Source: Cyanidioschyzon merolae (Eukaryota). Taken from it: 64,000 nucleotides of DNA. The notes under the pieces were generated by a model. That model saw only the letters and a program-made list of their open reading frames with translations. It was not told the origin of the DNA and did no database searches. The DNA is taken from assembly GCA_000091205.1 (NCBI GenBank), contig AP006495.2; one strand, written 5' to 3'. How positions within the stretch are numbered: the first letter of the stretch is position 1; each line of letters begins with the position of its first letter. The position numbers and the translations under genes were made by a program. Shown in pieces: positions 3,474 through 27,862 of this stretch.

Positions 3474-3614
3474 CACCGCAAAGGCACACAAAACGCCGTT
3501 CTAAACTCGAACGACGCCGACCGTCTACAGTAGTGGCGAGAAGCCCGCCCTTGACAAGAAATCTCCAACTGACGTGCGGACGCCTCCTGGTCTTGTTCGA
3601 CCGGCCACCTACTA

Positions 3615-5922: not shown

Positions 5923-6092
5923 ATGAACTGAATGACTGTACCTGGCTACGACCTCAACGAAAATACAAATTCTACATGAGATCTACATGCTAGAGATCAG
6001 GATCATGTTTCCCTTCAATGGCGGCATGCGCGTCGCGCCAGTTGACTGCCCGACCTCCGAGGTGCGCTCACTAAGCGCGATTCTTTTTTTCT

Positions 6093-6378
6093 CATTGACA
6101 GAACGTTTACTTAGGCCAGCGGCCTCCGATTGAGCGCTTTTTCTTCTCATACTATTTTTCTGTTTTTGTAGTGCGCGGTAAAGTATCCATCAAACCCCGT
6201 ACTTCCAAGTTCCGTTGCCCATACTTTTTCTCGGATATACTGGCCGTCTCATACGTTCTATCGTGTGCTGAGTACCTGACTCGTTCGTCCGCATTAGCGC
6301 CCATAGCGCCTGCGCCGCCGCTGTACGGAGATAGCACGACGTTGCCGTACCACAAAGGGCATCGGCTCGAGGCCTGCT
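6093..6378 (+). repeat. Dispersed ~290-bp repeat, copy B
   Basis: Same-orientation duplicate of 1985-2281, with the same left and right landmarks. Confidence 0.65.
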
Positions 6379-7176
6379 TCATCCGACGTAGAATCGGGTC
6401 TCGTCCTCAGTTTGTGCTCGGACAGTCTGCGGATGCAGGCTTGTCTTCGCTGCACGACACGCTGGAGAAACTTGGCTGTTAGGATATATCATGGGAGCCG
6501 CCTCTTTCCTTCGCGATCATGCATGGAATGCGTCGTTGTCGGTTGGCAATGCGGGTTTGTGTTTGACACCCACCACAGTGGGTAGGCGTAGAGAGCACTA
6601 AACCCGTGTGCGCATCCGATTCGCTCGACCTTCCGCCTAGAAGGTAGAGTGTGAGTTTGTTCGCCACTTATGAGCGCTGAGGCTCGGTTAGCGGACCATC
6701 ACATGCCAGTGCTACACTCAAAGTGAGTGTCCGGCCTTTGACTATCACGCTGCTGCCCAGCTGCTGCTGTCCTTCAAGGAGCTCGCTGTGCTCCTGCTTC
6801 CAGCGCGGGCACTGTAAGCCTAAATATGGCAGCGTCCGGGGGTCTCGTTTCCACAGCAGGGACAGTGTGATTCCCAGTGCGTTTCCAGTGTCCCTATACG
6901 GCTTAGAGGCGGTGCTGCTAGCCAGAAGCCGGCAACGTAGATTTGCGTCTTCTGGATACACTGCCGCACAACAGCGCACGCCGAGATCGACCACCGCCGT
7001 AGCCTCCACCAGTCGTACTGCAGCCGATGATGCTCGCACGCTGGCCCTGAGCGGCATCTCGATCTCTTTTGTGAGAAAGATACGGGTCACTGCTGTACAG
7101 CGATGACCGGAGCTCGCTAGGGAGTCTTATAGGATAGGTTGATGTTCCGACTTTCTTCGCATTCTTTTTTCTCGAG

Positions 7177-8457
7177 ATGACTAAAGAGTGTAAAGCGAAT
7201 CTGGCTCGGACGAGCGCACGTCACGAGCAGCTCGCATCGAAGCCGTTTGGTTTCTGTTACACCGTGCTGCGGGAGGAGAACTCGCACCAAGCGCGTGACG
7301 AGCTTTCCGATGCAATTCGAACCCATTTTGTGAACGCGAAAGTCAACGAGCGGTCCATACCTTCGCGATTTTTCTATGACGACGCTGGAACAGCGCTGTA
7401 TGAACGCATCACCTGCACTGAAGACTACTATCTCACGCGATGTGAACGGGAGATTTTCCGTAAATACTGCGATCGGATATTGAACATCGCAGTTGGACTG
7501 GACGAAGATGCACCTATTCGATCGCACTCTCCCAATGAGAGAGCCTTACATATCATCGAACTGGGCGCTGGCGACGGACACAAAACAGCAGTGCTGGTGC
7601 AGCGTGCTCTGCAACGTGGCCTGCACATCACGTACCGTCCCATTGACATCAGTGAGCGCGCCATGACGGACTGTGCGGAGCGCATCCTCGCAACGCTGAG
7701 CGACCCCGAGAATGGTCATCAGCGTTTGGAGCATTCGAGTGTTGAAGCGCAGTTCACCTTCCATGGTATTGTGGGTGATTTCTTCGAAGGACTTGGATAT
7801 GCGCTGCGCGCACCAGGACGGCGTCTGCAGAACCCTGTTGAGGATCGACTACTGGCAAACGCGGGCAACGCGGGGTATGGTGCAGCTCCCGAGTCAGCTC
7901 ATGAGCATGCTCGGCACTTAGTCATGTTCATTGGATCTTCGATTGGCAACTTTGATCCCACGAACGCTATAGCATTCTGTAAGCAGGTTCGGAGCTTGCT
8001 GCAGCCTGCCAGGGATCACTTTCTTGTCGGGTTCGATCTGCGAAAACCTTATGCAATCATGCACCGAGCGTATAGTGACCGTGAGGGTATTACTGCAGAA
8101 TTTAACCGCAACTTGCTCCGTCGTGTGAACAGAGAACTTGGATCCAATTTCAATCCGGCGAAGTTTGAACATTTTGCCCAGTACAATGTTCGACTCGGGG
8201 CGATGGAGAGCTTCCTTGTCGCCACCGAGCATATGCGTATTGTTTTTCCAAATCTGGCGATGGACACGACGGCGTTGCCGACTGGGAACGAAATCGCGAT
8301 AGAGCTGCGCCCCTGGGAAGCCATCCATACGGAGTACAGCTGGAAGTATACTTTAGAGGACATTTCTGCGCTGGCACAGAAAGCTGGCTTTAGTAGGATT
8401 GCTGCGAATTTCTTTGATTCGAAGAACGGGTTTGTGGACAGTATCTTCGCTCCGTAG
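7177..8457 (+). CDS. EgtD-family SAM-dependent methyltransferase (L-histidine N-alpha-methyltransferase-like, Methyltransf_33)
   Basis: ATG verified at 7177. Motifs FFYDDAGTALYERIT..EDYYLTRCE, IELGAGDGHKT, FIGSSIGNF and EFNRNLLRRVNRELGSNFNPAKFEHFAQYN match the EgtD signature (FYDA.GS.LF..I..LPEYYPTRTE; FLGSTIGN; AFNRNVL..VNREL...FD...FEH.A.WN). Confidence 0.8.
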   Translation: MTKECKANLARTSARHEQLASKPFGFCYTVLREENSHQARDELSDAIRTHFVNAKVNERSIPSRFFYDDAGTALYERITCTEDYYLTRCEREIFRKYCDRILNIAVGLDEDAPIRSHSPNERALHIIELGAGDGHKTAVLVQRALQRGLHITYRPIDISERAMTDCAERILATLSDPENGHQRLEHSSVEAQFTFHGIVGDFFEGLGYALRAPGRRLQNPVEDRLLANAGNAGYGAAPESAHEHARHLVMFIGSSIGNFDPTNAIAFCKQVRSLLQPARDHFLVGFDLRKPYAIMHRAYSDREGITAEFNRNLLRRVNRELGSNFNPAKFEHFAQYNVRLGAMESFLVATEHMRIVFPNLAMDTTALPTGNEIAIELRPWEAIHTEYSWKYTLEDISALAQKAGFSRIAANFFDSKNGFVDSIFAP

Positions 8458-10175
8458 CGAAGGAAACGACGGACGCACCCACGCACGCGCTTGCTGACTC
8501 GGTAAGCGAAACTCGTGTAAGCGGTATCGGATCGCTTTGGCGAACTGAATTGCATTTTGCGGGCTGGTCAAGGCACAAACCAGCGCTCGAGTCCAAGCAC
8601 CGCACAACATCGGTGACTGTCATGTACCGTGCCTGTGCTACTCAGTGCTATATAGCGTAAACTTCCTGAGATCAGTGGCAAGCTTTTCCCATCCCAGAGA
8701 TGACGCTGGTTTCAAGCGCCGGTGGGTTGAAATTGCACGGATCCTCTGGATACCACAACGGAATGCTTTGGAACAGAGTTCCATACGGAAGGCTTTGGAT
8801 CACATTGCCGGCCAGAGCAGGTCTATCGAGATCCCGGCGCTTCGGCATAGAAAAAATGGGAAAGCTGCTCATTTAGTGTACTCAACGCGAGAAAGGCCTC
8901 CTGGTTTCCGCGCCACAGTGTCCATCTGTGCGCAGGAAGACGGGCGTCTAGAGCGTCGCGTATCTGGGACGCAGCGCCACGGTACAGCGTCCACAGAAAA
9001 CAAAGCACAAACGATGCCAGAGATTTCTGTCGCAGATTTTTGGGTTGACGATCTCTCTCGACTGGCAGGATCGCCTAATGATAGATCTCAGTATACCCAA
9101 AACTTTCATAGTCGTATCCACGATCCGGTATTTCTCGCAATATACGGGGTGTGATGCGTGCTTTCCTGACTGCATGAGTCTGCTCTGCCGAGCCGCCTGC
9201 AGATACCACTCGTTATCCGCGGCACGCTTCAGCGCAAGTCGTTTAAACACATCGGAAAGCGGTCTGCAAATGCCACGCACCATGGTAGTGGTATCTATCT
9301 CGCCACAGCAACAGCTCGGAATTCAAAAACGATGTTTAACGGATATCCGGCGCGATCGTTGACTTTCGCGATACTTGCAATGTCTGGATCTTTTCCGGCA
9401 GGTTCGCTGCTCAGAATTCCGATTAGGCTGCACAGAAACTGCCTCTGACCAGGTGTTAAAAAAAGCCTCCAAGTCGTGTGCAGTGCTGAGCACCAAACAT
9501 CTTCGATATGAAGTGCACTGTGGGTAATGATTCGGCGCGGACTCCGCGGCGCATGATTCCTGATGAAAGACATCCCAGATGTACGGCAGCTTTGCTGTTT
9601 TGCCATCGGGCCAAGGCAGAGACGAGCAAACCCCGTGAGCAGACCGTGAATCCCGTCCACGCATCATAAACCACGCCAAATCTACGATAACCAAGCTCGA
9701 GCCAGAGGCGGCACCCGCGCCGTCGAATCACAAGAGCGCATCGAAAGCGCACTGCTTTCTTCGAGGTGCTGGTACAGCACGCAGCGGATAACCTCCCGCC
9801 ACAATCACAGCTTGCCGCCAGCAGAGATCTAAATGGCGGTTACGAATAATCGCCACCAAAACTAGATGCAAAAATTGTAGCAGCATTTCACGAAGCGCAT
9901 GGGCTCCGCATGCCAGTTATCGTAGATTGCAGCGCTGCATCGCGACACACCTCAAACGTTGGTCTCCTGCAGTCAACGGTTCAACGGATCCATCACGATG
10001 AGGAAAATCACATATCGGGCTAGCGACGTGCGCAGACGCCTTGTCCACGGCTCACCACGAATGCCCACCCTGGACTCGATTCCCCACTGAGCTGCAGCGT
10101 ATCGTTTTCAGCAGTAGATCGGACAAGTGACGCTCGGCAGGCGCTGATGCGTTGCATCTGGCGCTCGGTGCACGC

Positions 10176-11258
10176 TCAACCCTCCCGATTCCAGAGGCAC
10201 TCACAATGCTCGGAATCGGCGAGCGCGCGCGTCTCCTCGTCGATGGGTTCCGCATCCAGCTGTGTTAACATAGGCAGAACACGCAGCACCAGCGCTCGAT
10301 ACCACTTGTTTCCGTGCTGAGTCTGGAGCCGTTCAGCGAGCGGGTTTCCCTCCAGGTACAGGGTCCGCAGTTTCGCATGTGCCGAGAGATGGCGCAACTG
10401 TTCAATGCTGTCTATTTTGTTATCGTTCAGCCAGAGCTCTTCGAGATTTTGTAAGTCATCCAACAAGTCATCGAGGCGCGCAATGCGGTTACAACCCAGA
10501 TCCAACAGCTTCAGGTTTCGGAGCATCTCCGTCCCATTTAGAGCCGAGATACCGTTATGACTGAGATAGAGCTCTTCGAGCGAGTCTCGGCAATATTCGA
10601 GGGCGCTCCCTAGTGCCAACAAACGATTGCTCTGCAGTGAAAGGCGTTTGAGTCGGCGGAAGCAGTGCAGCGACGGGAGCTGAACGATCTTGTTCCGTCC
10701 GAGCCATAGCTCCTCTAGCGAGCCTCCTACCTCGAATAGATTGTCTCCAAGCGTTCTTATGCGGTTGGATCCCAGTTCCAACAATCGCAGTTGCGGTAGA
10801 TTATGTGCTTGGAGGCCAGCGATTTCCTTGATTCTATTTTGGACGAGATACAGTTCCTCCAGGGCCGGCAAGTGGAAACGCTCCAGCCCTGCCATACTGT
10901 GGATGCGGTTAAAAGACAAATCCAGGCGTTTCAATTTGGGCTTATGCTCAAGTCCGCTGATTTCCCTGATATGATTTAGATAGAGGTCAATTTCTTCGAG
11001 CTCCGACAGCGTCTCCAGTCCACGTAGCTCCGTGATCAGGTTCTGGCGAAGCACCAAACGACGCAACGAAGTACAACGATCGAGGTTTTGGATTCGACTT
11101 ATTCTGCAGTTCGTCGCCTGGAACTCTAGGAACGGATTGCTAAAAGCGGCGTCAGTTCCGCAGGGAAGTCGATAGGCCTCTGCGATTTCGCCCAGTCCGC
11201 TGTACGAGATGTCGACGACACCGTCCTCGTCCGGACGGACTAACGGTCGCTCCGACAT
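10176..11258 (-). CDS. SDS22: SDS22-type leucine-rich-repeat protein (protein phosphatase 1 regulatory subunit 7)
   Basis: About eleven 22-residue LRRs of the SDS22 type (LELGSNRIR, LWLGRNKI, LSLQSNRL, LYLSHNGI, LWLNDNKI, LYLEGNPL) plus a C-terminal LRR cap. The track start at 11264 is GTG, and the ATG two codons downstream (MSERPL...) is the likely start. Confidence 0.85.
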   Translation of the reverse strand: MSERPLVRPDEDGVVDISYSGLGEIAEAYRLPCGTDAAFSNPFLEFQATNCRISRIQNLDRCTSLRRLVLRQNLITELRGLETLSELEEIDLYLNHIREISGLEHKPKLKRLDLSFNRIHSMAGLERFHLPALEELYLVQNRIKEIAGLQAHNLPQLRLLELGSNRIRTLGDNLFEVGGSLEELWLGRNKIVQLPSLHCFRRLKRLSLQSNRLLALGSALEYCRDSLEELYLSHNGISALNGTEMLRNLKLLDLGCNRIARLDDLLDDLQNLEELWLNDNKIDSIEQLRHLSAHAKLRTLYLEGNPLAERLQTQHGNKWYRALVLRVLPMLTQLDAEPIDEETRALADSEHCECLWNREG

Positions 11259-11866
11259 ATCCACGAAAACGACAGACAGCGTTCAAGTTTGCACACAGAA
11301 GGATCTGGTTGAGCTCATGGAAGCACTTAGGCTGGATCCTGGTTCCCGGCTCACGCGTACCGACACCAAGCTGCCCGCTAGTTGAGTCGTCAGCAAACGC
11401 AGCAGCGATGTATTTCCAGTCTATGGTCCAGGACTGATAAGCCTCACTAGTTCTTCGGGGTGATCACGTGCTGATGCTGTTCCTGGTAACCCGAGAAGAG
11501 GTCTCAGCTCCAGTACAGACGCTTCCACGTCCTACTAGGTCAAGAGCAACGCCCAGATGCGCTGCCACCGCTGCGGCATGGAACTGCTGCCCGGCAGCCG
11601 GCGGAACAGAACAGCTGCAACTTTCCTGTTCAGCTGCGCAGAAGTGTCCTGAGAGTCACGACTCCTGGCGCGTTGCGAAGCGCAAGCAACTGTAGAAAGC
11701 TAACGGACCCAGGGTCCGTGTCGATTTCAAAGTTCTCGCCATGAAAGGCATCTGCACACTGGAAGTAGTCAACTGAGACGAGTTTCGGCGAGAAGCAGCT
11801 GCAAACGCTGCGCTTCATCGTCGACGTTTTGGGTGCAGTTACAAGCACAACGAACTTTTTTGGATC

Positions 11867-13402
11867 ATGAAAACCAAAAGTCGAGGTAAGACGAACCATT
11901 GGGACCGTGACGGTGCTCCGGCGGTGGCACGCGAGCACCAGTACCGCAGCAGCCGCAAAGGCACTGCAAAAGGGAGTGTGGCGGCGCCCGTGCACAAGCG
12001 GAGCTTGTATGCTCGAGGCCTGCTGCTCGTTGTACTCTATCTGTTTCAGGGCGTACCCATGGGCCTCACCTTTGGCTCGCTGCCGTTTCTGCTCCAGACG
12101 CGCTCTTCCTACGCCAAGCTCGGTGTATTTTCCTCTGCGTCGTATCCGTACTCACTGAAGCTTCTCTGGTCACCGATCGTCGACTCGGTATACGCGTCGC
12201 GTCTCGGTCGTCGCAAATCCTGGATTGTACCTGCGCAACTCCTTATAGGGGTCATCATGGCCTCCATGGCCGCAGCAGTGGAACGCTGGGTTCAACATGC
12301 CCGAGTGATGCAGTTGACGCTTTTCTGCTGGGGGCTCGTTTTCCTTGCGGCAACACAGGATATTGCGGTAGACGGTTGGGCATTAACGCTCTTAGGTGAA
12401 GCAGGATCCGGGTACGCATCGATTTGTCAATCGCTAGGGCTTAGTCTAGGGTACTTTTCGAGCTATACAGTTTTCCTCGCGCTGAACAGCGATGAATTTT
12501 GCGTCCGATGGCTGCAGCAAACATCCGCCGTGATTCGCTTGTATACCTTTCTGCGAATCATGGGTGCATCATTCATTGCGTTCACGCTAATGTTGGCAGT
12601 TTTTGTCAAAGAAGAAATGGCGGAGGATTTGACGCTTGTTCCGCAACCCGACACCGGAGGCCTGTGGTCCGCTCTGCGAGATGCGTATGCCGCGCTTTGG
12701 AGCATACTGCGCAAGCGCTCCATTCAGCGCTTGGTTGTATTCCTCTTGTTCAGTAAGTTTCCCTTTGCTGCTCATGATCACATATCGTCACTGCAGCTGG
12801 TGCGTCGCGGGTTCCCGCGTCAACAGCTGGCATTCATGGCGGTGCTCCAGTGGCCGTTCGACGTCATCGGAGCAATCGCTGTTGGTCGGTATGCCCGGAA
12901 CAGCCGTAACCTCAAGGACAGTCTCTGGCGATGGGGCTTTTTTCTGCGGCTGATGCTCGCAATGTTCACTCCGCTGCTCATCCACTATTTCTTCCCGCGT
13001 GGTGAAAGCGCACGATCCCGTTGGATGTTTGTCGCGATTTTCATCGTCAGTGTTCTTTACCAGTTAGCCAGCGATGGTCTAATGTTTGTGTCCACGTCTT
13101 CGTACTGTGCTCGGATTAGCGATAAGCGCTTTGGAGGCACGTACCTCACGCTTTTGAATACTGCATCGAATTTGGGGGGAACGTGGGCGACCCCGTTGGT
13201 TTTCGGTGCAGCGCACCGCTTCGGATACCTTCGTGTCGCTTTGGCTCTCCCTTTGTGTGGCCTGCTCGTATACTTGCTGCTCCTGGGACCAACTCTGGAC
13301 TATTTGGAGAAGGTTCCGGCATCAGCGTGGCAGCTTGATCGGGGTCCAGCCCAAGCCGTCGCTTCTGTGCCTCACCGCAAAACACTCCGATGTCGCGAGT
13401 GA
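11867..13402 (+). CDS. Acetyl-coenzyme A transporter 1 (AT-1 / SLC33A1 family)
   Basis: ATG at 11867. Near-collinear with SLC33A1 motifs: LYLFQGVPMGL..GSLPFLLQ, YPYSLKLLWSPIVDSVY..LGRRKSWIVP, FLAATQDIAVDGWALTLL and GGTYLTLLNTASNLGGTW. A multi-pass MFS-like membrane protein. Confidence 0.85.
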   Translation: MKTKSRGKTNHWDRDGAPAVAREHQYRSSRKGTAKGSVAAPVHKRSLYARGLLLVVLYLFQGVPMGLTFGSLPFLLQTRSSYAKLGVFSSASYPYSLKLLWSPIVDSVYASRLGRRKSWIVPAQLLIGVIMASMAAAVERWVQHARVMQLTLFCWGLVFLAATQDIAVDGWALTLLGEAGSGYASICQSLGLSLGYFSSYTVFLALNSDEFCVRWLQQTSAVIRLYTFLRIMGASFIAFTLMLAVFVKEEMAEDLTLVPQPDTGGLWSALRDAYAALWSILRKRSIQRLVVFLLFSKFPFAAHDHISSLQLVRRGFPRQQLAFMAVLQWPFDVIGAIAVGRYARNSRNLKDSLWRWGFFLRLMLAMFTPLLIHYFFPRGESARSRWMFVAIFIVSVLYQLASDGLMFVSTSSYCARISDKRFGGTYLTLLNTASNLGGTWATPLVFGAAHRFGYLRVALALPLCGLLVYLLLLGPTLDYLEKVPASAWQLDRGPAQAVASVPHRKTLRCRE

Positions 13403-14708
13403 TGAATGCACCTTGACAGTGAGTCGATTACGCAATGCTTCAGTTCCTGACTTGTGAGCACTCAGAATAAGCGCTCTGCCCACGTGGTAGAATGTGGTCT
13501 TGGTCGGCATCGTATTGTGCAAAGAGAACCGTATGGAAACGGGCGCTCCGTACGACGCTTTAACATTAGCGCACGCGCGATGCATCTTTTCCCATACGGC
13601 GAGAAGGCGCTCAGTCTCATGCTTTTCGGACAATACGGGTTATCTCCCGCATCCTCATGTGCCCCGATTCCAGAGCATGTGGTCAGCACGGACGGCTCTG
13701 GAGCATCAGTGGGCTCGTTGTGCCCGGTAGTTGGTTAGGCGCCAAACATCGAGCCATGGTCGCTGTAAGCATCACAGAGACTCAAGGTGGATTCTGGCGG
13801 CAAGAATCCATATACTGGCGAGTCGCCGATATTGTTTGCTCGTTTGCCGCGCTTCTGGACATGGTCGTGAGTAGATTTCTGTTATGCCGCGTTGTTTCTC
13901 GATGGGCACAGGTAATGAAGGCCCGAGGATGCCCGTCATCCATTGAGAGCTTGTCCGTAAACCAATCGATTCCGTACCATGACAAGTGGCACCACGGCTC
14001 GAATGGACCCGTGCGCTGGGATGTCAGAAAAGCTCCGAGGCGCCTCGGAGATGCTCGCACCCGAGCATCGCTACCATTCCAGGGGACTCTGTCTCCGCTT
14101 TGGAATGCCCATGAAAGGACCCTTGCGCCAGGCATTACCAAGAAGCATCGCAGCTGCCGTTTTCCCCAAAGTATGAGCTGGTGCTGCTCCGTGGATACCC
14201 GGTCCAGTTTTGGTACCAAGCCGCCCGTCGATCCTAGAAGCGGCTTTTTCGGAAAAAAGCTTGTCTGCTTGGCACTTCATCGGCAAGCTTCCGACCCGGA
14301 CGTGCGTCACGCTGCTAGCGTCTCCAATGATCATGGTGGCTCCTGGATTTCCGCTCAGGATCCCTGAAGTGAATCAGATGTCGCCAGACGCACAGCTTCA
14401 TAGCAATGCGTCATATCCTTTTCGTTTCTTGTGGAATGAGGGCATCTACCCTGATCTCGCGGGATGCGCGGACCCTCTCCAAGAATCAAAATACGGAGCA
14501 TACCTCTTCGGCTGTCGCTTCGATATTCGCCATGTGCATACCCCAATTCGGGATCGCATGTCAAACAATGAATAAAAAATCAACAAGCCCCTTACAGACC
14601 AGCATCAGCACATCGCGATGCACACTCCGAAACAGAAGCACTTAAAACGTTGGCTGAAAATCACAGGGCAAAGGCGCTTCCTATCAAAACCACGAGTACA
14701 AAGCGCCT

Positions 14709-15677
14709 CCCAGCAACTGTCCGTTTCTTCAAGCACCGGAGCGATGGATGATCGTCACAGTCGATCCTATTTCTTATAACCCAGCAACTGTCCGTTTCTT
14801 CAAGCACTGGAGCGATGGATGATCGTCACGGTCGATCCTATTTCGTATAACCCAGCAACTGTCCGTATCTTAAAGCACTGGAGCGATGGATGATCGTCAC
14901 AGTCGATCCTACTTCTTACATCCCAGCAACTGTCCGTTTCTTCAAGCACTGGAGCGATGGATGATCGTCACGGTCGATCCTATTTCGTATAACCCAGCAA
15001 CTGTCCGTTTCTTAAAGCACTGGAGCGATGGATGATCGTCACAGTCGATCCTACTTCTTACATCCCAGCAACTGTCCGTTTCTTCAAGCACTGGAGCGAT
15101 GGATGATCGTCACAGTCGATCCTATTTCTTATAACCCAGCAACTGTCCGTTTCTTCAAGCACTGGAGCGATGGATGATCGTCACGGTCGATCCTATTTCG
15201 TATAACCCAGCAACTGTCCGTTTCTTAAAGCACTGGAGCGATGGATGATCGTCACAGTCGATCCTACTTCTTACATCCCAGCAACTGTCCGTTTCTTCAA
15301 GCACTGGAGCGATGGATGATCGTCACAGTCGATCCTATTTCTTATAACCCAGCAACTGTCCGTTTCTTCAAGCACTGGAGCGATGGATGATCGTCACAGT
15401 CGATCCTATTTCGTATAACCCAGCAACTGTCCGTATCTTCAAGCACTGGAGCGATGGATGATCGTCACAGTCGATCCTATTTCTTATAACCCAGCAACTG
15501 TCCGTTTCTTAAAGCACTGGAGCGATGGATGATCGTCACAGTCGATCCTATTTCGTATAACCCAGCAACTGTCCGTATCTTAAAGCACTGGAGCGATGGA
15601 TGATCGTCACAGTCGATCCTATTTCGTATAACCCAGCAACTGTCCGTATCTTAAAGCACTGGAGCGATGGATGATCG
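14709..15677. repeat. 71-bp minisatellite, about 13.6 tandem copies
   Basis: The unit CCCAGCAACTGTCCGTTTCTTCAAGCACTGGAGCGATGGATGATCGTCACAGTCGATCCTATTTCTTATAA recurs with period 71. Unit variants differ at ttcttataac / ttcgtataac / cttcttacatc and at cttcaag / cttaaag, and units 4-6 equal units 7-9, giving a 213-bp higher-order repeat. A short (GAC/GAT)n tract follows at 15690-15720. Confidence 0.9.
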
Positions 15678-16041
15678 CCTGCGTATGTGGCGGTCAAACG
15701 ACGACGACGACGATGACGATCTGCGTCGCCATCGAGGTGGCGTTTCTACCTAGCGCCTGTCCGCCGTCGCTTAAACACTAGGTAGCCATTGCGTTTTCTG
15801 TACTCGTTGGAGGGGGACTTTGCTTGAACGGTGTTGGTAACGAACTGGGTCCAGGGCAGCAAGGTATTTCCCAAAAAGACGCTGGCTGAAAGACACTCGA
15901 ACACGTCAGTCAAGCGAGGACTTTGGACATAGTCCTTGTGGACGCAGAAGCAAACGAGCCTGGGTCTTTTTGCGTCGCGAGGCGTTACCGAGCGCATCGA
16001 CTACAGTCTGACGCACCCCTAGGATCGGAATAGTGACTTTA

Positions 16042-19000
16042 ATGGGGGATTTGGGTGAACATGCACCGTCGAATGGCTCCGCAAAGGATAGCGTTCGGCG
16101 CTATGTTGAGGAACACGGCGGTAGTAGACCAATTCAGCGCTTATTGGTCGCAAACAACGGAATCGCCGCCGTAAAGTGCATCCGATCAATGCGAAGATGG
16201 GCATACGAAGCGTTTGGTAGTGAACGAGCGCTGGAGTTTGTAGCAATGGCCACTCCCGAGGATGTTCAAGCCAACGCCGACTACATTCGCCTCGCTGACC
16301 TCTTCGTTCCCGTACCTGGGGGAAGCAACAACCACAACTACGCCAACGTGGAGCTCATCGTCGACATCGCGGAAAGGAACGAGTGCGATGCAGTATGGGC
16401 GGGTTGGGGTCACGCCAGCGAGAACCCGCTGCTGCCCGCTCGCCTTGCGGAGACTGGTATCGCATTCCTGGGACCGGATGCCATTGCCATGAGGGCGCTC
16501 GGCGACAAGATTTCGTCAACGTTGTTAGCTCAGTCTGCGGATGTTCCAGTCGTCAGCTGGAACGGTGATGACTTGAAGGTAACTTTTCACCGCGAGCGCG
16601 GCGGTATTGATGAAGAACGCTATCGCCGTGCCTGCGTTGCGAATGTCGACGAGGCTCGCGCTGCTGCCGATCGTATTGGCTACCCAGTGATGATTAAAGC
16701 CAGCGAAGGAGGCGGTGGCAAAGGCATCCGTCTTTGCCGTCGACCAGAGGATGTTCGAGATGCCTTTCGTCAGGTCGCCGGAGAGATTCCTGGCTCTCCG
16801 ATCTTCATCATGAAAATGGTGGATCAAGCGCGACACCTGGAAGTGCAGATTGTTGCCGATGAATACGGGCACGCGATAGCGCTATATGGGCGTGACTGCT
16901 CCGTGCAGAGACGGCATCAAAAGATCATCGAGGAAGGGCCAGTTACGGCAACGCCACCGCAGGTTTGGAAAGAGCTCGAACATGGAGCGGTGCGTCTTGC
17001 CAAAATGGTCGGTTACGTAGGTGCCGGCACTGTTGAGTATCTCTACGACGGTCGACGTTTCTATTTCCTGGAACTGAATCCGCGCTTGCAGGTGGAGCAC
17101 CCAGTAACCGAGTGGATCACTGGCGTGAACCTGCCTGCAGTCCAGCTGCAGATTGCCATGGGGATTCCGCTCCAGCGTATTGCAGCTATCCAAGCACTTT
17201 ACGGCAATAGACCGGACCTGGATCTCGAGCGACACCAGCCGAACCCGCCGCATGGCCACGTAATCGCCTGCCGCGTTACCGCAGAAAATCCCGAGGAAGG
17301 ATTCCAGCCGACAAGCGGCTCCATTCAGGAGCTTTCGTTTCGAAATACGCCCAATGTGTGGGGCTATTTCAGCGTCGGCGCCTGGGGTGGTGTCCACGAG
17401 TACGCTGACTCGCAATTCGGGCACCTTTTTGCCTGGGGTGCGGATCGCGAGATGGCCCGGAGGAATATGGTGCTGGCACTGAAAGAGCTCAGCATCCGCG
17501 GAGATATCCGCACAACGGTGGAGTATCTTATTACGTTGCTGGAGCTCGAATCGTATCGCGAAAATCGCATCCATACCCGTTGGCTGGACAACCTCATTGC
17601 CTCCAAAGTGAAACCAGAGCGACCGCCGTTCCATATCGCTGTTGTGCTTGGTGCAGTCCATCAGGCGTACAGAGCCTGGTCTGAGCGCCGGCGATCTTTT
17701 GTTGAGTCGCTGAGTCGCGGTCAAGTGCCGCAGCGTATTGACGCTACCTTCATAGAATTTCAGTTCGAGCTGATCTACGATGAGCTCAAGTACGCGCTCA
17801 TCGTCAGGCAAGCGGGTCCGAATGCCTTCCACGTCTCCCTAGCACAGCATCCCGAGGAACGGGTGCGTGTTGATTTCCGACCTCTGCTGGACGGTGGTCT
17901 CTTGATCATGTGCGATGGTCGCTCCTTCAATACTCACTCCAAGGAGGATTCCACTGGCATGCGTCTGAGCATCGACGGGCGAACCTGTGTGTTCCCAGGC
18001 GAAATGGACCCTACGCGCATTGCAGCACAGGCCTCGGGGCGTCTCGTCCGATACCTGGTTGCCAACGAGGAACACGTCGATCAGGGACAAGTCATTGCGG
18101 AGATTGAAGTCATGAAAATGTATCTGAGCGTGCAGGCTCCCGAACCGGGCACCATTCACTTGCTGAAACCAGCGGGAGCGGCCCTGGAGCCAGGCGAAGT
18201 TTTTGCGCAGCTCGATCTCGACGATCCGAGCAAAGTTCGACGGGTGACGCCATTTACTGGGCGCTTTCCGACAATGCTGCCTCCACAGCGACTGGGAAAG
18301 AAACCGCACCAGCGCTTTGAGAGCGCGAAACAGCAGATCGAAGCGCTCCTGGACGGCTACGATGTTGATATGGAGCCGCTCGGCATGCTTCTGCAGCTGG
18401 CGAGCACCGAACCGGCAGTACCGGCCGGGAAACTGCAGGAGGCGCTCTCTTTCCTAGCCGGTCGTATTCCGTCGACGTTGCATGCCGCCCTTCTAGGACA
18501 AGTTTTCGAACTGCGTTCCGTTGCTCGTGATGATCACGAGCGCCTCCAACAGCATTTCCGCGAAATGAAGCGCATGATCAGCGATTTCTGCGAGCAACTT
18601 GCCATCGCAGCGGACCGCGAGGCGCTGGAGGCTACCCTGCGCCCCCTGACCAGTATCCTGGAGGCGTATGTTCGCGGGGGCCTTCGCGGCTACCACGAGC
18701 ATCTCGTTGTATGCCTCATGCAACGCTATGTGAATACGGAGAAGTATTTTGCGCAAGGTCGGCGGCTCGATGAGGTTCTATTCGATCTGCGCGAACAACA
18801 CCGCGAGCACTTGGAAGTTGTTGCGGATATCATGCTCGCACATGCCCAGTTAGCGCGAAAGAACCAACTGATGCTCGCTTTGCTCGATCACATAGCCGCG
18901 GATGCATCGCTTCTGCGCAGTGTCATTGTCCGGCAGTGCCTTCACGAGGTGGCTGCGTTCATCCACCCCGACTATAGCCAACTGGCGCTGCGAGCAAGAC

Positions 19001-22000
19001 TCTTGCTGGCGAGTTCTCGTCGCCGAGCGCTCCCCGAACGTCGAGAGCGCCTCTGCAAGCAGATCGAACAGGCTGTACATGCGCCCACTGAAGAACAATG
19101 CTATCGTCTGTTGCACGCGGTGGTCGAGTCCCAGGAAAGCATCCTGGATGCGCTGGTGAGCCTAACCATGAACCCGGGGGTGCCGGTGGAGATTCGCAAA
19201 GCCGCTGTCCAGTGCCAGATCCTGCGGGCCTACAAAGCGTACCACGTGTACGATCTGGTTGTCGAACTTGACGAGGAACTGGGTTTCCTGCGGGCGTTGT
19301 GGCGTTTCCAGTATCGTTCAAACCTGAACGCTTTTGGTAGTCATTCCAGTATGCGGTCGTTTCCGGCGGCATTGGTGGCGGCGTCGGCTCCGCTAGCCCG
19401 CCGGCAGCTGCGTAGCTACGACTCTGCGGACAATTTGCAGAACTGGGGCTTTCGAGTCGGTATGTTGGTCGTCTTTGAGACGCTGCGGGCGATGGTGCAG
19501 GGTTTCGATCGTGTGCTCCAGGTTTTTCGAGCGGAAACCGGCGGCGAAACGCTGGCTTCGCCTCGTACCAAGTCGAGCGCCGCAGTCGATTCCAGTGCAG
19601 ACTCCAGTGCTGAAGGTATTGGTGTCAATGTACTGACCATCGCCATTCCCTGGACGGCCGTGGAGGTCGCTGATTTTGCGAAATACCTGGGCGTTGCAGA
19701 CGCGGACGACCGTCTGCAGGCAAGTAATGCGAACGACTCGGAGCAGGTTGTCGCCCTGCTCACGCGTTTCTGTCGCTCTTCCGCGGAGCGCAAAGCCTCG
19801 ATGCGCGCTGCCGGTATCAAACTTGTGACCTTTTTGGTGGCACCCGGTGAACTGTGCCAGCGCACGCTGGGCTCCAGTCTGCCTCGTGAAAGCACTTATC
19901 CGGGTTTCTATACGTTGCGGGCATCGCTCGAGTACGCCGAGGATCCCATTTATCGCCACATTGATCCACCAGCGGCTTTCCAGCTGGAGCTGAATCGATT
20001 GGCGAACTTTCGTATCACCCGCTTTGAACATCCGAACCGCTCCATTCACGTCTTCTACGCGGAAGATCGAACCGACAAGGGCGACGCTCGCTTCTTCGTG
20101 CGCGCTTTTGTACGGCAAGCGGAAGTCTACGCCAGTCCCAGCGATACAGCAGCGGTTTCGATCCCGGAAGCGGAGAGGACTTTTGTGGCCTGTCTGGATG
20201 CCTTGGAAACCGCCCGTTGTGATAGGCGCTTCCGACGAACGGACTTTAATCATCTCTTCTTGCACCTGATTCCCCGGGTCTCCATCGATGTGGATGACGT
20301 CGAGGCGATCTGTACGCGCCTCTTTTATCGGTTCTCCTCACGTTGCTGGCGTTTGCGCGTGTTCATGGTAGAGATCAAAGTCCATGTGGAAAAAATGGGC
20401 CCGAAACCGCTTCGATTTATTCTCTATAATCCAACCGGACACTCGTTACGCGTTGAAGGCTACGTGGAACAGGGAGATCGTCTCCTGTCGTTGGATTCCA
20501 GCGATCCGGGTCATTTACATGGTACACCCGTCGATGAGCCGTACCAGGTACTGAACCGTATCCAGCGCCGGCGAGTTGTTGCCCAGACGCTCGAAACAAC
20601 TTACGTCTACGATTACCAGGAGCTTTTCACCAAAGCACTCCATGAGCAGTGGCGGCGTTATTCGCAGGAACGACTTTTGGGAGGATTTCGCCGCCACAAG
20701 ATACCGCTGAAACTGCTGACCTGCACGGAGCTCGTTCTCCAGGATGAAGATCATGACGAGAGCGAGCTGATAGAGACCAACCGCCCCGCCGGGGAGAATG
20801 AAATCGGTATGGTCGCCTGGCGCTACACCTTCTTCACGCCCGAGTATCCCCAGGGTCGCGATGCGATCGTCATTGCCAACGATATCACGTACCTGAGTGG
20901 ATCGTTTGGACCTCGAGAGGATCGCCTCTTTGCCAAGGCGTCTCAGCAGGCGAGAAAGCTCGGTATACCGCGCATCTACATCGCTGCGAATAGCGGAGCC
21001 CGAATCGGCCTCGCGGAAGAACTGCGCAACGTCTTCCAAGTTCAGTGGAAGGATGCACATGACCCGAGCCGAGGCTTCGACTACCTCTACCTGGGACTGG
21101 CGGATAAGCTCAAGTACGAGGATGAACTCGGCATCGTGCGAACGCGAGACGTCGGCGGCGGCAAGTACGCTCTAGTTGATATCTATGGCGCTGAGGATGG
21201 CATTGGTGTCGAGAACCTCATGGGTTCAGCGTGCATCGCTGCCGAGACCTCAGCCGCCTACAATGACTGCTTCACCATCACGTACGTCGCAGCGCGCTGT
21301 GTGGGGATCGGTGCGTACCTCGTGCGCCTGGGGCAGCGCGTTATCCAGCGCGAGCACAATGCACCGATCATCCTCACTGGCTACTCAGCGCTGAATAAGC
21401 TTCTGGGTCGCGAAGTCTACACCAGCCACGAACAGCTGGGCGGTACGAAGATCATGTATCCGAACGGGGTTACCCATCTGCGCGTATCCAATGACTACGA
21501 GGGTGTTCGGGCAATTCTGGACTGGCTCGCTTTTGTGCCTCGTATGCAAGGGGAACGACCTCCGATGATCGACTCCATCGATGCTGTGGTACGCGAAGTC
21601 GACTACGATCCACGAGTGGCTAACGAGGATATTCGATACGCCATTGAAGGCAAGTGGGTCGGACCCTTCGCTCCCGACGGGGCAAGTGTGGTCTCGTCGT
21701 CGGGCTCGTCGGTGTCGTCCAATGGTCCGGTTGCGACAGGTGCGAGCGCTGGACTGCCGCCCGTCAACATGGAGAGTGTCGGCGGTGAAGTTCGGTATCG
21801 TTCGCGGTCGCGGACGGCTTCGTATGCGGGTGCGAATGCAGCAACAGCAGCAGCACCAGGAGCAAGTAGCTTGGCGACCTCTGGAGCGGCACTTGCGAAT
21901 GCTACGGGACGAGCAGCGGCTCGGGTGAGCCTCGTATCGACCAAGCCTGCAACCGGTGTCGAGGAGGTTCCCGCGGCGTTGCCTTCGGGTTCGAGTTCAC

Positions 22001-23447
22001 TGGCGCTCCGCTCGACCGCTGTCGCTGCGCCTGTACCTCAGGAGAGAGCAAAGACGGATGCGGATGCGGATGCGGATGCGGATGCGGATGCCTTGGAGGC
22101 CACTGGAACTGCCCGAGGCGCAGATACCAGCGGTGCTGGGGCGCACGCAAGCCCTGACACCCGGCAGCCGCCCACACTGGATGCCCTGAAGACTGCGAGG
22201 TTTGCACCAGCGCCCGCTGCATTGCCGACGACAGGTTTACGCTCGCCACCACAGTCCCCGGGTTCTGTTTCTGCGTATAGCCCGTTGGAGAGTGGCTCTC
22301 CATTGGAGCCGTCCCTTGACGAGGATCACATCGCTTTCACGGACACCGATCGGATGCGGATCGGGTCGCCTTTGGTACACGCGACCGACGCCTGGGATAC
22401 GAGCAACAGCGTTCACTCGAGTAGCGCGACGACGATGGCTGCAGGTGCCGTCCGGGGCTCGCGACTGTTCACTGCGTCATCGAGTACGTCGGCGGCTGCG
22501 GGAGCAAGCGCCAGCAATAGCAGCAACAACGGTAGCAGCAATGCGAATACGAATACCATGAACAATGCTGGGAGTAGCGTGGCATCGGCAGGCGCACCGC
22601 TCAACACCACCGGTAGCATCAATACCAATACCAATGCCAATGCCAATACCAACAATATCTTGGGTAGCGGTGGTGTTGGTGCGACAGCTTCGCTGACCGC
22701 TTGGAGCGGTAACCTTCCGCCGCTACCGTACGTTCCAAATACGCTCATGGTGGTGGACAACCAAGGGTACGTGTTCCTGGCAGGCCTCTTCGACCGTCAC
22801 TCGTTTCGAGAGACGCTCGCTGGCTGGGCGAAGTCCGTTGTGGTTGGTAGAGCACGCCTTGGTGGTATCCCCGTGGGCGTTATTGCGACACAGACGGTGA
22901 CCACAGAGAAGGTTATTCCCCCGGATCCAGCGGCGCCAGACTCGCGTGAGCTTCGTGAACAGCAGGCCGGTCAAGTCTGGTATCCAGATTCATCCTTCAA
23001 GACTGCCCAAAGTATTCGTGATTTTGATCGCGAGGGTTTGCCTCTGTTTGTTCTGGCCAGCTGGCGCGGTTTCTCTGGCGGAGCACACGACATGTTCCAG
23101 GAAATACTCAAGTTTGGTTCAGAGATCGTTGACGCGCTTCGCGAGTACTCGAAACCCGTCTTTGTGTACATACCACCGGGAGGCGAGCTTCGAGGCGGTG
23201 CCTGGGTCGTCCTCGATACCGCCATCAATCCCCGCTTTATCGAAATGTACGCCGATGAAAGTGCACGTGGTGGTGTGCTCGAACCTGCCGGTACCGTGGA
23301 TATCAAGTTCCGCACCAGAGATTTGCTGAAGACCATGCAGCGCCTGCTACCATCGTCTAGACGTGATGAGAGCGATTCGAGTGCGTCCGACGTTGTCGGC
23401 ATGCTGTCTTTGGACGCATCATCATCATCAGCAGCAGCAACAGCAGC

Positions 23448-23481
<34 letters not shown>

Positions 23482-24201
23482 GCAGGTACCGCTGGGACGT
23501 CCTCTTCGACTGCTGGGCGTAGCGAGTCGCGGGTCACAAAGTCAACGGCGGACGGCTTGCCAGCCTTCGAGGCAGACGGTCGGAGTTCGCTCGAGCAAAC
23601 ACTCTTGCCCATCTTTCAGCAGATAGCCATGACGTTTGCGGATCTGCACGATACAGCGGGTCGGATGCAACATAAGCGCGCGATTCGCCGAGTGGTACCC
23701 TGGCGAACAAGTCGCACGTTTTTCTACTGGCGCCTTCGACGTCGGCTCGCCGAGGAGGAACTGCGGAGTCGCGTTTCACAAGCGGATCCGCAACTCAGCG
23801 ACGCGGAGATCGATGCGCTGCTGCGGAAATGGGCAAGAGCACATGACCCCGCTCTGGACGGTGATATTTACGAACTTGATGATCCTCGTGTCGTGCAATG
23901 GCTCGAGGACGAATTGGATAGCCAGTTGGAGCGGCGTTTGCACAAACTCCGCGAAGCACGCGCCACCTGGCAAGCTGTGGAACTGGGGAATACAGCACCC
24001 GAGGCGTTGCTTGCGGCAATTGAGCGTATTCTCGTACAAATGGATGAAGTTGGTCGCAACGAATGGTTACGAACGCTTAGTGCGCGACTCGAGAACACCT
24101 CATCCGGTTTGGGTGATCTCGAGGCGCCCAGCTCGGGTGAGCAGGCCGCACCACGACGTGTCTTGTCGGGTCGTGGTCTGCTGCGACGCTTCCTCGGGTA
24201 G
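16042..24201 (+). CDS. ACC: Acetyl-CoA carboxylase, eukaryotic multidomain type (biotin carboxylase, BCCP, central domain and carboxyltransferase)
   Basis: The track start at 16033 is GTG, and the first ATG at 16042 sits just after an in-frame TGA at 16009. The biotin carboxylase domain has [51 protein letters not shown] and ELNPRLQVEHPVTE. The biotinylation motif EIEVMKM lies at about 18106-18120. The carboxyltransferase domain has [38 protein letters not shown]. The 2720-residue length reflects low-complexity insertions. Confidence 0.95.
21680..22720 (+). repeat. Low-complexity insertion of about 350 aa inside the ACC carboxyltransferase domain, including (GCGGAT)6 encoding DADADADADADA and an NTNTNANANTNN tract
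   Basis: The insertion lies between the conserved IEGKWVGP block and the PPLPYVPNTLMVVDNQGYVF block. It is S/A/T/N-rich, and the hexamer repeat is visible at 22055-22090. Confidence 0.8.
23424..23486 (+). repeat. (CAA/CAG/ATC)n trinucleotide tract inside ACC, encoding SSSSAAATAATTTTTTTTTTTAG
   Basis: Direct read of atcatcatcagcagcagcaacagcagcaacaacaacaacaacaacaacaacaacaacagcag. Confidence 0.9.
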
Positions 24202-24777
24202 TGCGCTACGACTCTGGAACGATTTGCGCGGGTTGCATCGGTGGTGTTGTCATCGTCGTCGACGCCGACGTCGATGGCAACGGCAGCCTCGTCCAGAGTC
24301 AGGAGTTTGCCGCGCGATGCTGTTTACCTATGGGGGCGTCGGGGAGCTTCCACGACGTTCGGTCGTGGAAAACATACATGGACGACAACGGAGCATTTTC
24401 GACGCTTGCGAACGCGCAAATGCACCAGCACAAGTCATAAACACGAAAAGAATCCGGGGTTTTCATTGCAACGATTCCGGCGAGGTACCCCAGCGGGCTC
24501 TGATCTGCAGAGGTGCTTGTCTAGACGTACGGCTACTCGAGTTGTCGCAGCGTCATGGACGTACTCGTCACGCAAATATGGTTTACGCTTGGGTTTCGGC
24601 TTCATTGCAGACGGCGTGCAGTGTCAACGCGCAAAGATACGCACACAAAGAAGCGCTTTGGTCTAGACGCGGGCATGGATGCTAGCACACCTCTCTAGAC
24701 GAACGAATTCGGTGCCGTGGACGAACCCCAGTACCTAGGTAGCTACACAAACGCGTACGCATGTCGATGCGTCGATG

Positions 24778-26421
24778 CTAGGGTTTATCAGGGCAAAGCG
24801 CATTGCAGCAAGCTGCTTGATCGGAAGCTCGCGAGCCCTGGTATCGATCGTAGTATCGAATACCACGTCCGTCAATGCGAACGAGGTAGTAGGTTCCGGG
24901 GAAGAGTTCCTCCAACGGTTCGGAGGGCTCGTAATCACAGGCGCCGTAGTTCTGTTCGCGAAGACGAAGCGTCTCATGAAAACAAGCAGGCGACGTCGGT
25001 ATCCGTGCTCCTAGTCGTTCTATGAGACCAACTCGTCGAAGAAGCGCCTCCGGAGAGGCCACGACCCGCATGGCGTACATTGACGCTGCCATGCCGCTGC
25101 CAAAACCGAAAAGAACCACCCGTTTGCCGAGTGTACGATCCCTCTCGGCATCGAGTAAGCACAGTAAATTACCAAAAAGCGAGGCGGTGTACGCGTTGCC
25201 GGTTTGTCGAGCCAGCGTCGTCGACGGAGCACACTTGGCGCGATACAGTGGCTCCGAGCATTCAAGCACGAGCTGCATCAGGGTTCGATCCCAGTAGGTT
25301 GACGGTGGCGGTACGCACACACCAGTCGGGTTCAGGTGCGCAGGGAGGCGTTTCAGCTTGGCAAGTTGCGCACGTAACGCACCCGATACGGCACGATGCT
25401 GTGAAGCCAGTTCAGGATAGCGCAAGTAGTCGTTGAGCACGAGTCGCGCAAACGATTTGCGCACCAGTTTGTTGAATGGTGCATGGAAAACCACATAATC
25501 GAGTTGCGTTGCGTCGGCATCCGCGACCGGTGTCACCGAAGGCTCAGCAAAAGCGGTGCTTGTCAGCAGGGTGCATCGAAGCGACTGTTGTTCGGTGACC
25601 TGCTCGGCACCGGGTCGACCGCTGGTTTCCGCCAGCCATACTCGTGTGCGTCGAGTCTGCTGCTCGACTCGTCCAGTAAACCTGGTGTAACAGATATCGA
25701 GTGCTCTAAAATAGCAAGCAATGCTTTCCGTGCCATTCACAATAGGATACTCTGTATCCTGTCGACGAGCAGGCTTGAAAAAGTCCCATGTGTTTTCAAA
25801 ATGGCTACTTTTAAGGCCCGGTTCCAGCACCAGGATGGGCTCTAGCTGCGGGTAGCGTTGGGGCTGCGCTCGACCAATGAGGAGCGCGACTGCGCCCGCT
25901 CCACCGGTTGCTCTCGCTGGTCCGCGCGGATACACGGCAATATCGCCGCACACCACGAGCCCGAAGCGACCATCAAAGAGGGTACAGCTCTCGCACCAAG
26001 CGATGGTGTTGAAGAGGGCATTGGTACCAGCGTAGCAGGCGTTGGTAGAATCGATGCCTTCGACCTCAAAGTTGCCGCTCTGTTCAAAGAGGGACATGAG
26101 CGCCGTCTTGATCGACTTGGCTCGATCGATGATGGTCTCGGTGCCGACCTCGAGCCTGCCGATGTCGTTGTATTCAATTCGGTATTTCTCCATGAGCGTC
26201 TGCACGACTGTCATGCACATCGAGCGCACATCCTCGCGATCGCCACAGAACGACATGGCTTGTTGTCCCAAACCGATGGTGTATTTCCCAGGGGTGACGC
26301 CGTCGAAGCTCTCCAGCGCCCGTTGATCGACATATTTGCGTGGGAAGTATACTTCAATGGCCAGAATACCTACCGGATCAAAGGTGGAGACTGAAGGAGC
26401 CAAAAGCTGCGCTTGTCGCAT
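24778..26421 (-). CDS. HMGCS: Hydroxymethylglutaryl-CoA synthase (cytosolic mevalonate-pathway type)
   Basis: Long collinear match to HMG-CoA synthase: VGILAIEVYFPRKYVDQRALESFDGV, GKYTIGLGQQAMSFCGDREDVRSMCMTVVQTLMEKY, GRLEVGTETIIDRAKSIKT, EGIDSTNACYAGTNALFN and GGAGAVALLIG. An ATG (minus strand) at 26421 sits just before the conserved N-terminus. The ORF is open further upstream to 26595, so a 58-aa N-terminal extension is possible. Confidence 0.9.
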   Translation of the reverse strand: MRQAQLLAPSVSTFDPVGILAIEVYFPRKYVDQRALESFDGVTPGKYTIGLGQQAMSFCGDREDVRSMCMTVVQTLMEKYRIEYNDIGRLEVGTETIIDRAKSIKTALMSLFEQSGNFEVEGIDSTNACYAGTNALFNTIAWCESCTLFDGRFGLVVCGDIAVYPRGPARATGGAGAVALLIGRAQPQRYPQLEPILVLEPGLKSSHFENTWDFFKPARRQDTEYPIVNGTESIACYFRALDICYTRFTGRVEQQTRRTRVWLAETSGRPGAEQVTEQQSLRCTLLTSTAFAEPSVTPVADADATQLDYVVFHAPFNKLVRKSFARLVLNDYLRYPELASQHRAVSGALRAQLAKLKRLPAHLNPTGVCVPPPSTYWDRTLMQLVLECSEPLYRAKCAPSTTLARQTGNAYTASLFGNLLCLLDAERDRTLGKRVVLFGFGSGMAASMYAMRVVASPEALLRRVGLIERLGARIPTSPACFHETLRLREQNYGACDYEPSEPLEELFPGTYYLVRIDGRGIRYYDRYQGSRASDQAACCNALCPDKP

Positions 26422-27862
26422 CGTATCCGGGTGAAGTGGCTCCGACTCCTGTGCAGCACTCGTTGTTGGCGGCATTCCGCAAAACCAAGGCCTGTTTTGT
26501 TCCCTGCGTGACAAGCATGAAGACGTCCGCTGCGTTTGCTGGTCAGACGAGCACCAGCTGTCTTTGTCTGATAACCAACTTGTCTGGAGCTCCATAGGCT
26601 GTAGTGCTCCACCGAGCTCTTTTTAACCGTGCCGGTCGCTTGTATTCTAGAAGCCGCGACACTTCAGGTCGGTCGATGTACAGCAACCCAACGCAAGCGG
26701 TGGCGCTTTTCGTGCAGAAGCGCGGACCTCGCCGTACGTATCGCTCAGGCTCCGAAACGCACCAGCGAGTTTCTCGTTCGCAGTGAGAGTTCAGCCACTC
26801 AGTTCGATGGACCAGGCTTGTCTAATCGACGCAATGTTCCACCATACATAGAAACATGGTGCAACCAAAGTCTTTCCCGAACGGCATGAGCCAACCGCTT
26901 TGCTCATACGTATCCAGCTGGGAGAAGCAGCAGCAGCGGCAGCGGCGATGGCGGCGGCAGCGGCGATCTCCACGCTTGGAGCCACCAGGGCTCGTGTCCG
27001 TTTTTTCTTTCTACGAGATAGCGCCCATGAAACACGGAGTGCAGGCAGTGCTCCTGCTTCCTGCTAGACGAACGGATACGATCGCGTGTCAACGAGATGC
27101 TCGAGTCGAGTCTGTCCGATTCTGGTGCTGGGAACATGACGGGTCTTTTCGTATACGCGTACGGCCTCATATCCGTTTATGTGAAACGGGATCTCGGATC
27201 CCAACCCAGTCGCTCCATCAACGTTCTTGTGAACAGTACCGAAGCTTGACATGCTGCGGCCTGTTTGGTAGCATTTCTCAGACAACTTTTGCAGCGGCAT
27301 CAATTGATCAAAAGACCTTCGAGTTGATAGAGTCAAACAGATTCCGTTTCGGGTGCACGGTGTTCAGCGTAAGGGCCAGGAGACGGGTGACTCATGCACC
27401 CGCTTATCGTAGAATGAGTACCATGGGGAAAACGGTAGATTTTTCGCCTGCTACCGGTGACGGAATCCAGACTTTCGGCGGTCTGGCTCCCGACTAGTGG
27501 ATGCATTCCTTCTATTGAATACTTCCGGGAAAACAGAACCCAATCGGCGTGATGGTATAGGTATTCCAGAATTTACTGCTCTGCGTCTACCAGCATGACA
27601 GTGCTAAGTTTAGATGCATCATTCGTGTACCATTTAGACTGTTCAAGGGATCGACTTCATCGCAGACAACATTTCGAAAAAAGACGGTATTGGCGTGTCA
27701 CAGCCGCGAACGGCCGGTCGTGCGCCTTGAACAACCCGAATGCGGGACGTAGCCAGTATGCACCGCAAGCTCCAAAGTACGGACCAACACCAAAAACCTA
27801 ATCGATTCAACTGCAGAGATGCCTGCTTGTGAATTCCAGCCAGTCGCGTACCGCCACGTGCT

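Follow-up and report, generated by a model that had tools for sequence, protein, structure and literature searches.

The spacer between the acetyl-CoA transporter 1 gene (AT-1) and the acetyl-CoA carboxylase gene (ACC1) of Cyanidioschyzon merolae harbors a tandem array of 71-bp units, which raises the question of whether this array serves as a regulatory element of ACC1, gives rise to a product, belongs to a dispersed satellite or is simply a variable repeat without a function of its own. The window in which it was analyzed is a 64,000-nucleotide stretch of contig AP006495.2 (assembly GCA_000091205.1), whose GC content of approximately 55% is the same as that reported for the C. merolae genome. 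The reading in which we place considerable, if not complete, confidence is that the array represents a locus-specific, noncoding, hypervariable minisatellite (VNTR), which is probably neutral. The existence of the array, its locus specificity, its variation between strains, its absence from relatives and its lack of a coding or RNA-structure signal were each demonstrated.

AT-1 (positions 11867 to 13402, plus strand) was identified by its match to the Pfam family Acatn (E=4e-98), while ACC1 (16042 to 24201, plus strand) corresponds to a 2,722-amino-acid open reading frame (ORF) which contains all of the domains of a multifunctional acetyl-CoA carboxylase. The ACC1 start codon at position 16042 is also the one called in a metagenome contig (L001), and it is consistent with the alignment to the ACC proteins of relatives, which begins at residues 1 to 2. 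An HMG-CoA synthase gene follows ACC1 on the opposite strand, and in C. merolae ACC1 and HMGS are CMM188C and CMM189C, with neighbors as in the window. The AT-1 product shares 72% identity with that of Cyanidiococcus yangmingshanensis, 69% with that of a second species of the Cyanidioschyzon clade (GCA_041825655.1; hereafter species B) and 57% with that of Cyanidium caldarium. In all four Cyanidiales species examined (represented by the window, L011 of species B, L015 of Cyanidiococcus and L020 of Cyanidium), AT-1 is followed by ACC, and HMG-CoA synthase is positioned after ACC in both the window and Cyanidium, the species B and Cyanidiococcus loci stopping short of this point. These three adjacent genes (11867 to 26595), all of which use acetyl-CoA, may constitute a small conserved metabolic gene cluster. 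The ACC protein itself varies in length, from approximately 2,720 amino acids here to 2,635 in species B and 2,575 in Cyanidium; the C. merolae ORF harbors in-frame repeats of CGGATG (6 copies; 22055 to 22091), CAATAC (5.5 copies; 22620 to 22652) and CAA (14.7 copies; 23438 to 23481), which sit within long Ser/Ala/Thr/Asn-rich inserts.

The AT-1/ACC spacer measures 2,639 bp in the window (1,670 bp without the array), 1,653 bp in Cyanidiococcus and 367 bp in C. caldarium. Its unique left part (13403 to 14708), a segment of 1,306 bp, is 99.6 to 99.85% identical between strains and displays at most one 1-bp indel (in contig L008). Located between AT-1 and the array, within this part, is a 236-amino-acid ORF (13657 to 14367), which is open in several strains and was gene-called in some of the metagenome contigs; it returned no Pfam match and only chance-level tblastn matches to the corresponding loci of three relatives (E>=2.4), and with its abundance of W, C, R and S it looks noncoding in composition. 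A blastn comparison (word size 7) of the spacer with those relatives produced one chance-level match only (E=0.01), which fell within the relatives' ACC gene. As neither this search nor the tblastn search with the ORF yielded a match above chance, the spacer does not appear to contain a conserved hidden gene or RNA. The unique stretch of approximately 365 bp which separates the array from the ACC1 start codon (15678 to 16041, plus strand) is presumed to encompass the core promoter and 5' untranslated region of ACC1. This stretch is as long as the entire AT-1/ACC spacer of C. caldarium, which suggests that the functional promoter is proximal and that the array is located just outside it.

Tandem Repeats Finder (TRF) reported one large array at positions 14709 to 15677 (period, 71; 13.6 copies; 94% matches; 0% indels; score, 1735), and in-register cutting generated 13 full units and a 46-nucleotide terminal partial unit, corresponding to 13.65 copies. 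These values uphold the preliminary description of this DNA, in which a 71-bp array of about 13.6 copies was placed between AT-1 and ACC with the same start coordinate, although the end then given, 15720, overshoots: positions 15678 to 15720 represent unique sequence with a short GAC-rich run and lie outside the array. The array is positioned 3' of AT-1 and 365 to 1,333 bp 5' of the ACC1 ATG, and its GC content is 48%, versus 54% for the remainder of the spacer. The head-to-tail arrangement of its units, and their length, which falls within the range of approximately 10 to 100 bp, are those of a minisatellite. Decayed 71-bp units were not found in the left flank, while a unit-like stretch in the right flank (15711 to 15789, plus strand), which is out of register with the array and attained a local score of 15, a value reached by 5 of 200 shuffles, is a possible decayed copy of marginal standing.

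The units of the array fall into recurring types. Type A matches the consensus and is represented by units 6 and 9, with unit 1 (A') carrying one additional change, while type B (units 2, 4 and 7) is defined by G51 and G66, and type C (units 5 and 8) is defined by A22, C62, C69 and T71, to which unit 3 (C') adds A17 (numbers refer to unit positions). Along the array the types run A' B C' B C A B C A, after which come four further mosaics. As had been observed initially, units 4 to 6 (14922 to 15134) are repeated exactly as units 7 to 9 (15135 to 15347), forming a 213-bp block duplication across 14922 to 15347, and the exact match at a lag of 213 extends over 263 bp (14922 to 15184 being identical to 15135 to 15397). 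A near-exact duplication of a two-unit block was also evident (14780 to 15063), units 2 and 3 being identical to units 4 and 5 at 141 of 142 positions. The proposal of a three-unit higher-order repeat was not borne out: identities within the array at lags of 71, 142, 213, 284 and 355 were 94.9%, 96.3%, 96.7%, 94.6% and 96.9%, respectively, so that a lag of 213 performs no better than one of 142 or 355, TRF returned no 213-bp row, and an array-wide multiunit period with blocks more alike than adjacent units, as would characterize a higher-order satellite, was absent. The 213-bp block is a single recent three-unit duplication, seen only in the window allele, and the three-unit pattern is absent from every other allele.

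Other strains were represented by metagenome contigs. An exact-protein look-up with a metagenome-derived AT-1 sequence (P0001), which differs from the window AT-1 by one residue, retrieved ten contigs from JGI, ENA and Logan, the equivalent look-up with the window AT-1 matching nothing; a DNA scan added three contigs as well as L018, a second stretch of the contig behind L001. The left array junction was identical to that of the window in 13 further contigs from other samples, and all contigs which span the array end in the same 46-nucleotide partial unit. Spanning alleles comprise 13.65 (window), 7.65 (L006), 4.65 (L001), 3.65 (L002) and 3.65 (L019) copies, the last two possessing different unit variants. 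The copy numbers of the short alleles represent lower bounds, as short-read metagenome assemblies can collapse arrays, and most short-read contigs break within the array; the length polymorphism, being read from short-read assembly copy numbers, is therefore suggestive but not proven. The differences in unit order between strains, by comparison, are genuine sequence differences. When all alleles were pooled, 12 of the 71 unit positions proved variable, with A1, G4, T26 and A33 being common in other contigs and absent from the window, and the two-unit maps of the left end assumed nine different forms among 12 informative contigs. Such interspersed unit variants and allele-specific maps are again those of a minisatellite.

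This diversity is accompanied by flanks which are 99.3 to 99.85% identical to those of the other-strain contigs, i.e., a divergence of about 0.2 to 0.7%, in keeping with the 0.71% reported to separate C. merolae 10D from the Yellowstone strain MS1 (PMC13353863). L001 and L002, which come from independent samples, show no difference across the 4.7 kb left of the array and 3 differences among the 8,363 bases on its right, while their arrays are exactly one 71-bp unit apart; L002 possesses a unit adjacency missing from L001, which argues for a genuine difference in copy number. Near-identical flanks coupled with differing unit maps indicate that the array turns over much faster than its flanks and does so in whole units. 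The recent unequal crossover or gene conversion initially invoked for this array is thus supported by the exact three-unit block, the near-exact two-unit block and the strain differences in unit order and number. Overall, the earlier observations were partly confirmed and the interpretation placed on them was partly supported.

No array was present in the corresponding spacers of Cyanidiococcus (L015) and Cyanidium (L020). Species B harbors an array of its own in the same spacer, with a unit of 60 bp (L011, 12453 to 12742; L012, 12464 to 12818), which comprises 3.5 copies in one sample and 5.5 in another and ends 374 to 418 bp 5' of the ACC ATG; its 60-mers are approximately 80% alike and its 120-mers 97% alike, representing a true 120-bp higher order. 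Kinship between the 71-mer and this 60/120-mer was considered and rejected, the alignment score lying within the range of shuffled sequences and no 7-mer being common to both. Three arrays occur in 21.5 kb of species B, from which the chance expectation of such sharing of a spacer is approximately 1 in 3; the shared location is therefore a lead only, one that might point to a hot spot or to a role which depends on position. PMC9812998 describes the intergenic regions of Cyanidioschyzon as having been enlarged by repeat expansion (mean, 1,890 bp, versus 930 and 320 bp in relatives), and the array is consistent with this repeat-driven enlargement of spacers.

It is proposed that the array originated within the C. 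merolae lineage, later than the divergence of Cyanidiococcus and earlier than that of the present strains, and that whole units have since been gained, lost and exchanged in register. The candidates for the underlying process are replication slippage, the repair of breaks through strand annealing or synthesis, and unequal exchange, either between sister chromatids or at meiosis; these would rearrange the unit variants and from time to time duplicate a block of two to three units, the 213-bp block probably being the product of one such recent event. [quoted passage not shown] Both this mutational mechanism and the neutrality of the array are what we infer, the latter because the array lacks conservation. 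The array most probably serves no function that depends on its sequence, and it would be tolerated because it is located 5' of the proximal region of approximately 365 bp, which probably holds the ACC1 promoter.

An alternative which deserves consideration, although we regard it as unlikely, is that the array functions as a cis-regulatory element of ACC1, through reiterated sites or through chromatin (including Polycomb), with copy number tuning transcription in the way that has been suggested for variable repeats in yeast promoters. Its location upstream of ACC1 and the independent, variable array at the same position in species B are compatible with such a role, as is the presence in every unit of every strain of CAACTG (unit positions 6 to 11) and CGTCA (45 to 49), which we take to resemble Myb/E-box and bZIP half-sites. 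Furthermore, H3K27me3 is found on approximately half of the annotated repetitive elements of C. merolae and anti-correlates with expression (PMC5405695). Motifs of six bases are, however, expected by chance in any 71-mer, and a protected sub-motif was not apparent. The 30-nucleotide core, which had been described as fixed in each unit and as a potential reiterated protein-binding site, carries an A-to-G change at unit position 51 in 3 of 13 units and varies at position 33 in other strains, while the longest invariant run in the unit, with alleles pooled, is 17 nucleotides, a length which random placement of the 12 variable positions readily reproduces in simulation (P=0.41). Neither aspect of the binding-site proposal is thus sustained, and the lack of conservation in relatives argues in the same direction, since the array is missing from Cyanidiococcus and Cyanidium and the units of C. 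merolae and species B have no 7-mer in common. Apparent copy number moreover spans approximately 4-fold among strains with such similar flanks, and the sharing of a position with species B, in which arrays are common, carries the 1-in-3 chance expectation given above.

A broader proposal, which we consider decidedly improbable, is that the AT-1/ACC1 spacer is a conserved hot spot of instability or recombination, in which unrelated arrays arose independently in two species of the Cyanidioschyzon clade, each ending approximately 365 to 420 bp 5' of the ACC1 start, and that array length, through spacing or repeat-directed chromatin, tunes the expression of cytosolic ACC. If true, this would represent a fast-mutating control over lipid precursor supply in these extremophiles.

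We attach very little weight to the suggestion that the array is transcribed into a product, be it a peptide, a repetitive small RNA or a portion of the ACC1 leader. Small ORFs of 49 to 53 amino acids do recur along the array on both strands, and prokaryote-style gene callers place small genes on it in metagenome contigs. The longest ORF in the array nevertheless encodes just 53 amino acids, the unit length of 71 is not divisible by 3, and stop codons occur within 150 nucleotides in every frame. A search of the array against Rfam gave no match at E<=1, and folding of either strand revealed no excess of structure over shuffled sequences (z = 0.13 and 0.01), such that neither an ORF, an RNA family nor a fold marks it as a coding or structured-RNA repeat. 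An upstream exon is not needed to account for the N terminus of ACC, which aligns with that of relatives from residues 1 to 2. RNA interference machinery is reported to be missing from C. merolae (PMC11376382), and a small-RNA test is therefore unlikely to be informative.

That the array belongs to a genome-wide satellite, a possibility raised in the preliminary description, or to a centromere-associated repeat, appears scarcely tenable. Such repeats are under-represented in short-read assemblies, and the genome was viewed directly over 64 kb only; within that window, however, no second copy of the core or of the left half of the unit was detected at up to three mismatches (core matches arising in 0 of 100 shuffled sequences). 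An exact 21-mer of the core, searched against the JGI metagenome collection of 241 million records, retrieved four stretches, all of which align to positions 4314 to 17526 of the window over the AT-1/ACC spacer and carry AT-1 or ACC flanks, none having other flanks. Among 596 Gb of prokaryote genomes, three isolated 21-mer matches were obtained in unrelated bacterial MAGs, with identity to the unit at 35 to 36 of 71 positions and no similarity beyond the 21-mer. Across the window and the metagenome collection, the unit is therefore confined to a single locus, rather than dispersed over many as a satellite would be, and the array is specific to AT-1/ACC1. Unit k-mers elsewhere in the window occur at approximately twice a crude mononucleotide expectation, an uninformative excess which reflects overlapping k-mers at a few scattered sites, and they display no concentration 5' of genes within the window. 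The location of the array within a gene order conserved over four Cyanidiales species and its GC content, which is not strongly AT-rich, also argue against a satellite. The words satellite and minisatellite are not used in the available text of the C. merolae genome papers PMC1955436, PMC9812998 and PMC11050394, and our literature search found no paper combining minisatellites and Cyanidiales. The idea of a centromere was likewise set aside, having no basis in the sequence, and PMC3744952 is silent on the centromere of the ACC1 chromosome.

We find it barely credible that an assembly artefact accounts for the array, or for its length and block duplication. Repeats of this type are error-prone, and a mis-join might in theory produce the exact 213-bp duplicate, but the 71-bp unit occupies identical junctions in assemblies made independently from over 10 samples and three data sources, and errors of assembly tend to shorten arrays by collapse, not to lengthen them.

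Hypervariable minisatellites, or VNTR loci, were first described in humans, with MS32 and CEB1 as examples. The C. merolae array resembles them in its single-locus, head-to-tail units of 10 to 100 bp, with interspersed variants and allele-specific maps, and in its whole-unit gains and losses, block duplications and change far faster than that of the flanks, a likeness which is one of sequence and implies neither a mutation rate nor a meiotic origin. It differs from the human loci in that its unit is not GC-rich and is devoid of a chi-like core, and in that it is interstitial, beside a housekeeping gene in the compact genome of a unicellular red alga, rather than subtelomeric. For variable tandem repeats in the promoters of yeast genes (Vinces et al. 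2009) and for the VNTR of the insulin gene, changes in copy number reportedly affect expression or chromatin; the array is similarly located a few hundred base pairs 5' of a gene and apparently differs in copy number between strains, but the tests for constraint in its sequence were negative. A parallel with higher-order satellites, such as alpha satellite, is provided by the three-unit block, which is 100% identical to its neighboring block compared with approximately 95% for adjacent units, yet the array contains only two copies of the block, shows no multiunit period, lacks the block in other alleles, is shorter than 1 kb and is probably not centromeric. With respect to Cho et al. 2023 (PMC9812998), the available text of that study likewise describes spacers enlarged by repeats relative to those of Cyanidiococcus and Cyanidium, presenting genome-wide RepeatModeler totals rather than this array, its alleles or its locus specificity. 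The array is, therefore, a new example of a well-known class of element, and nothing suggests a new kind of element.

Additional repeats were observed in the window. A dispersed repeat of approximately 300 bp is present at 1978 to 2276 and 6086 to 6373 (78.7% identity), with a partial third copy at 42796 to 42856. Its two direct copies, 4.1 kb apart, flank ORFs at 2412 to 3491 (minus strand), for which a weak NUMOD3 match was obtained in L001, and 4149 to 4913 (plus strand), and the repeat may represent the termini of an interspersed or mobile element. Two-copy tandem duplications were identified at 35426 to 35589 (82 bp; 96%), approximately 150 bp 5' of an ORF at 35741 to 37594, and at 4460 to 4612 (75 bp; 79%), within the ORF at 4149 to 4913. 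An inverted pair of approximately 171 to 178 bp (45543 to 45713 and 59230 to 59400) displays 71% similarity over a distance of 13.5 kb.

The minisatellite described here offers a strain-typing marker for Cyanidioschyzon in hot-spring metagenomes, as unit maps differ where flanks are 99.3 to 99.85% identical, and the breaking of most short-read contigs at the array serves as a warning for assembly. Caution is also called for where the region upstream of ACC1 is to be used as a promoter fragment. Given the precise homologous recombination of C. merolae, the array is an easy site at which to test the effects of promoter-proximal repeats. For the biology of this lineage, it supplies one concrete, dated case of the enlargement of spacers by repeats which has been reported for Cyanidioschyzon.
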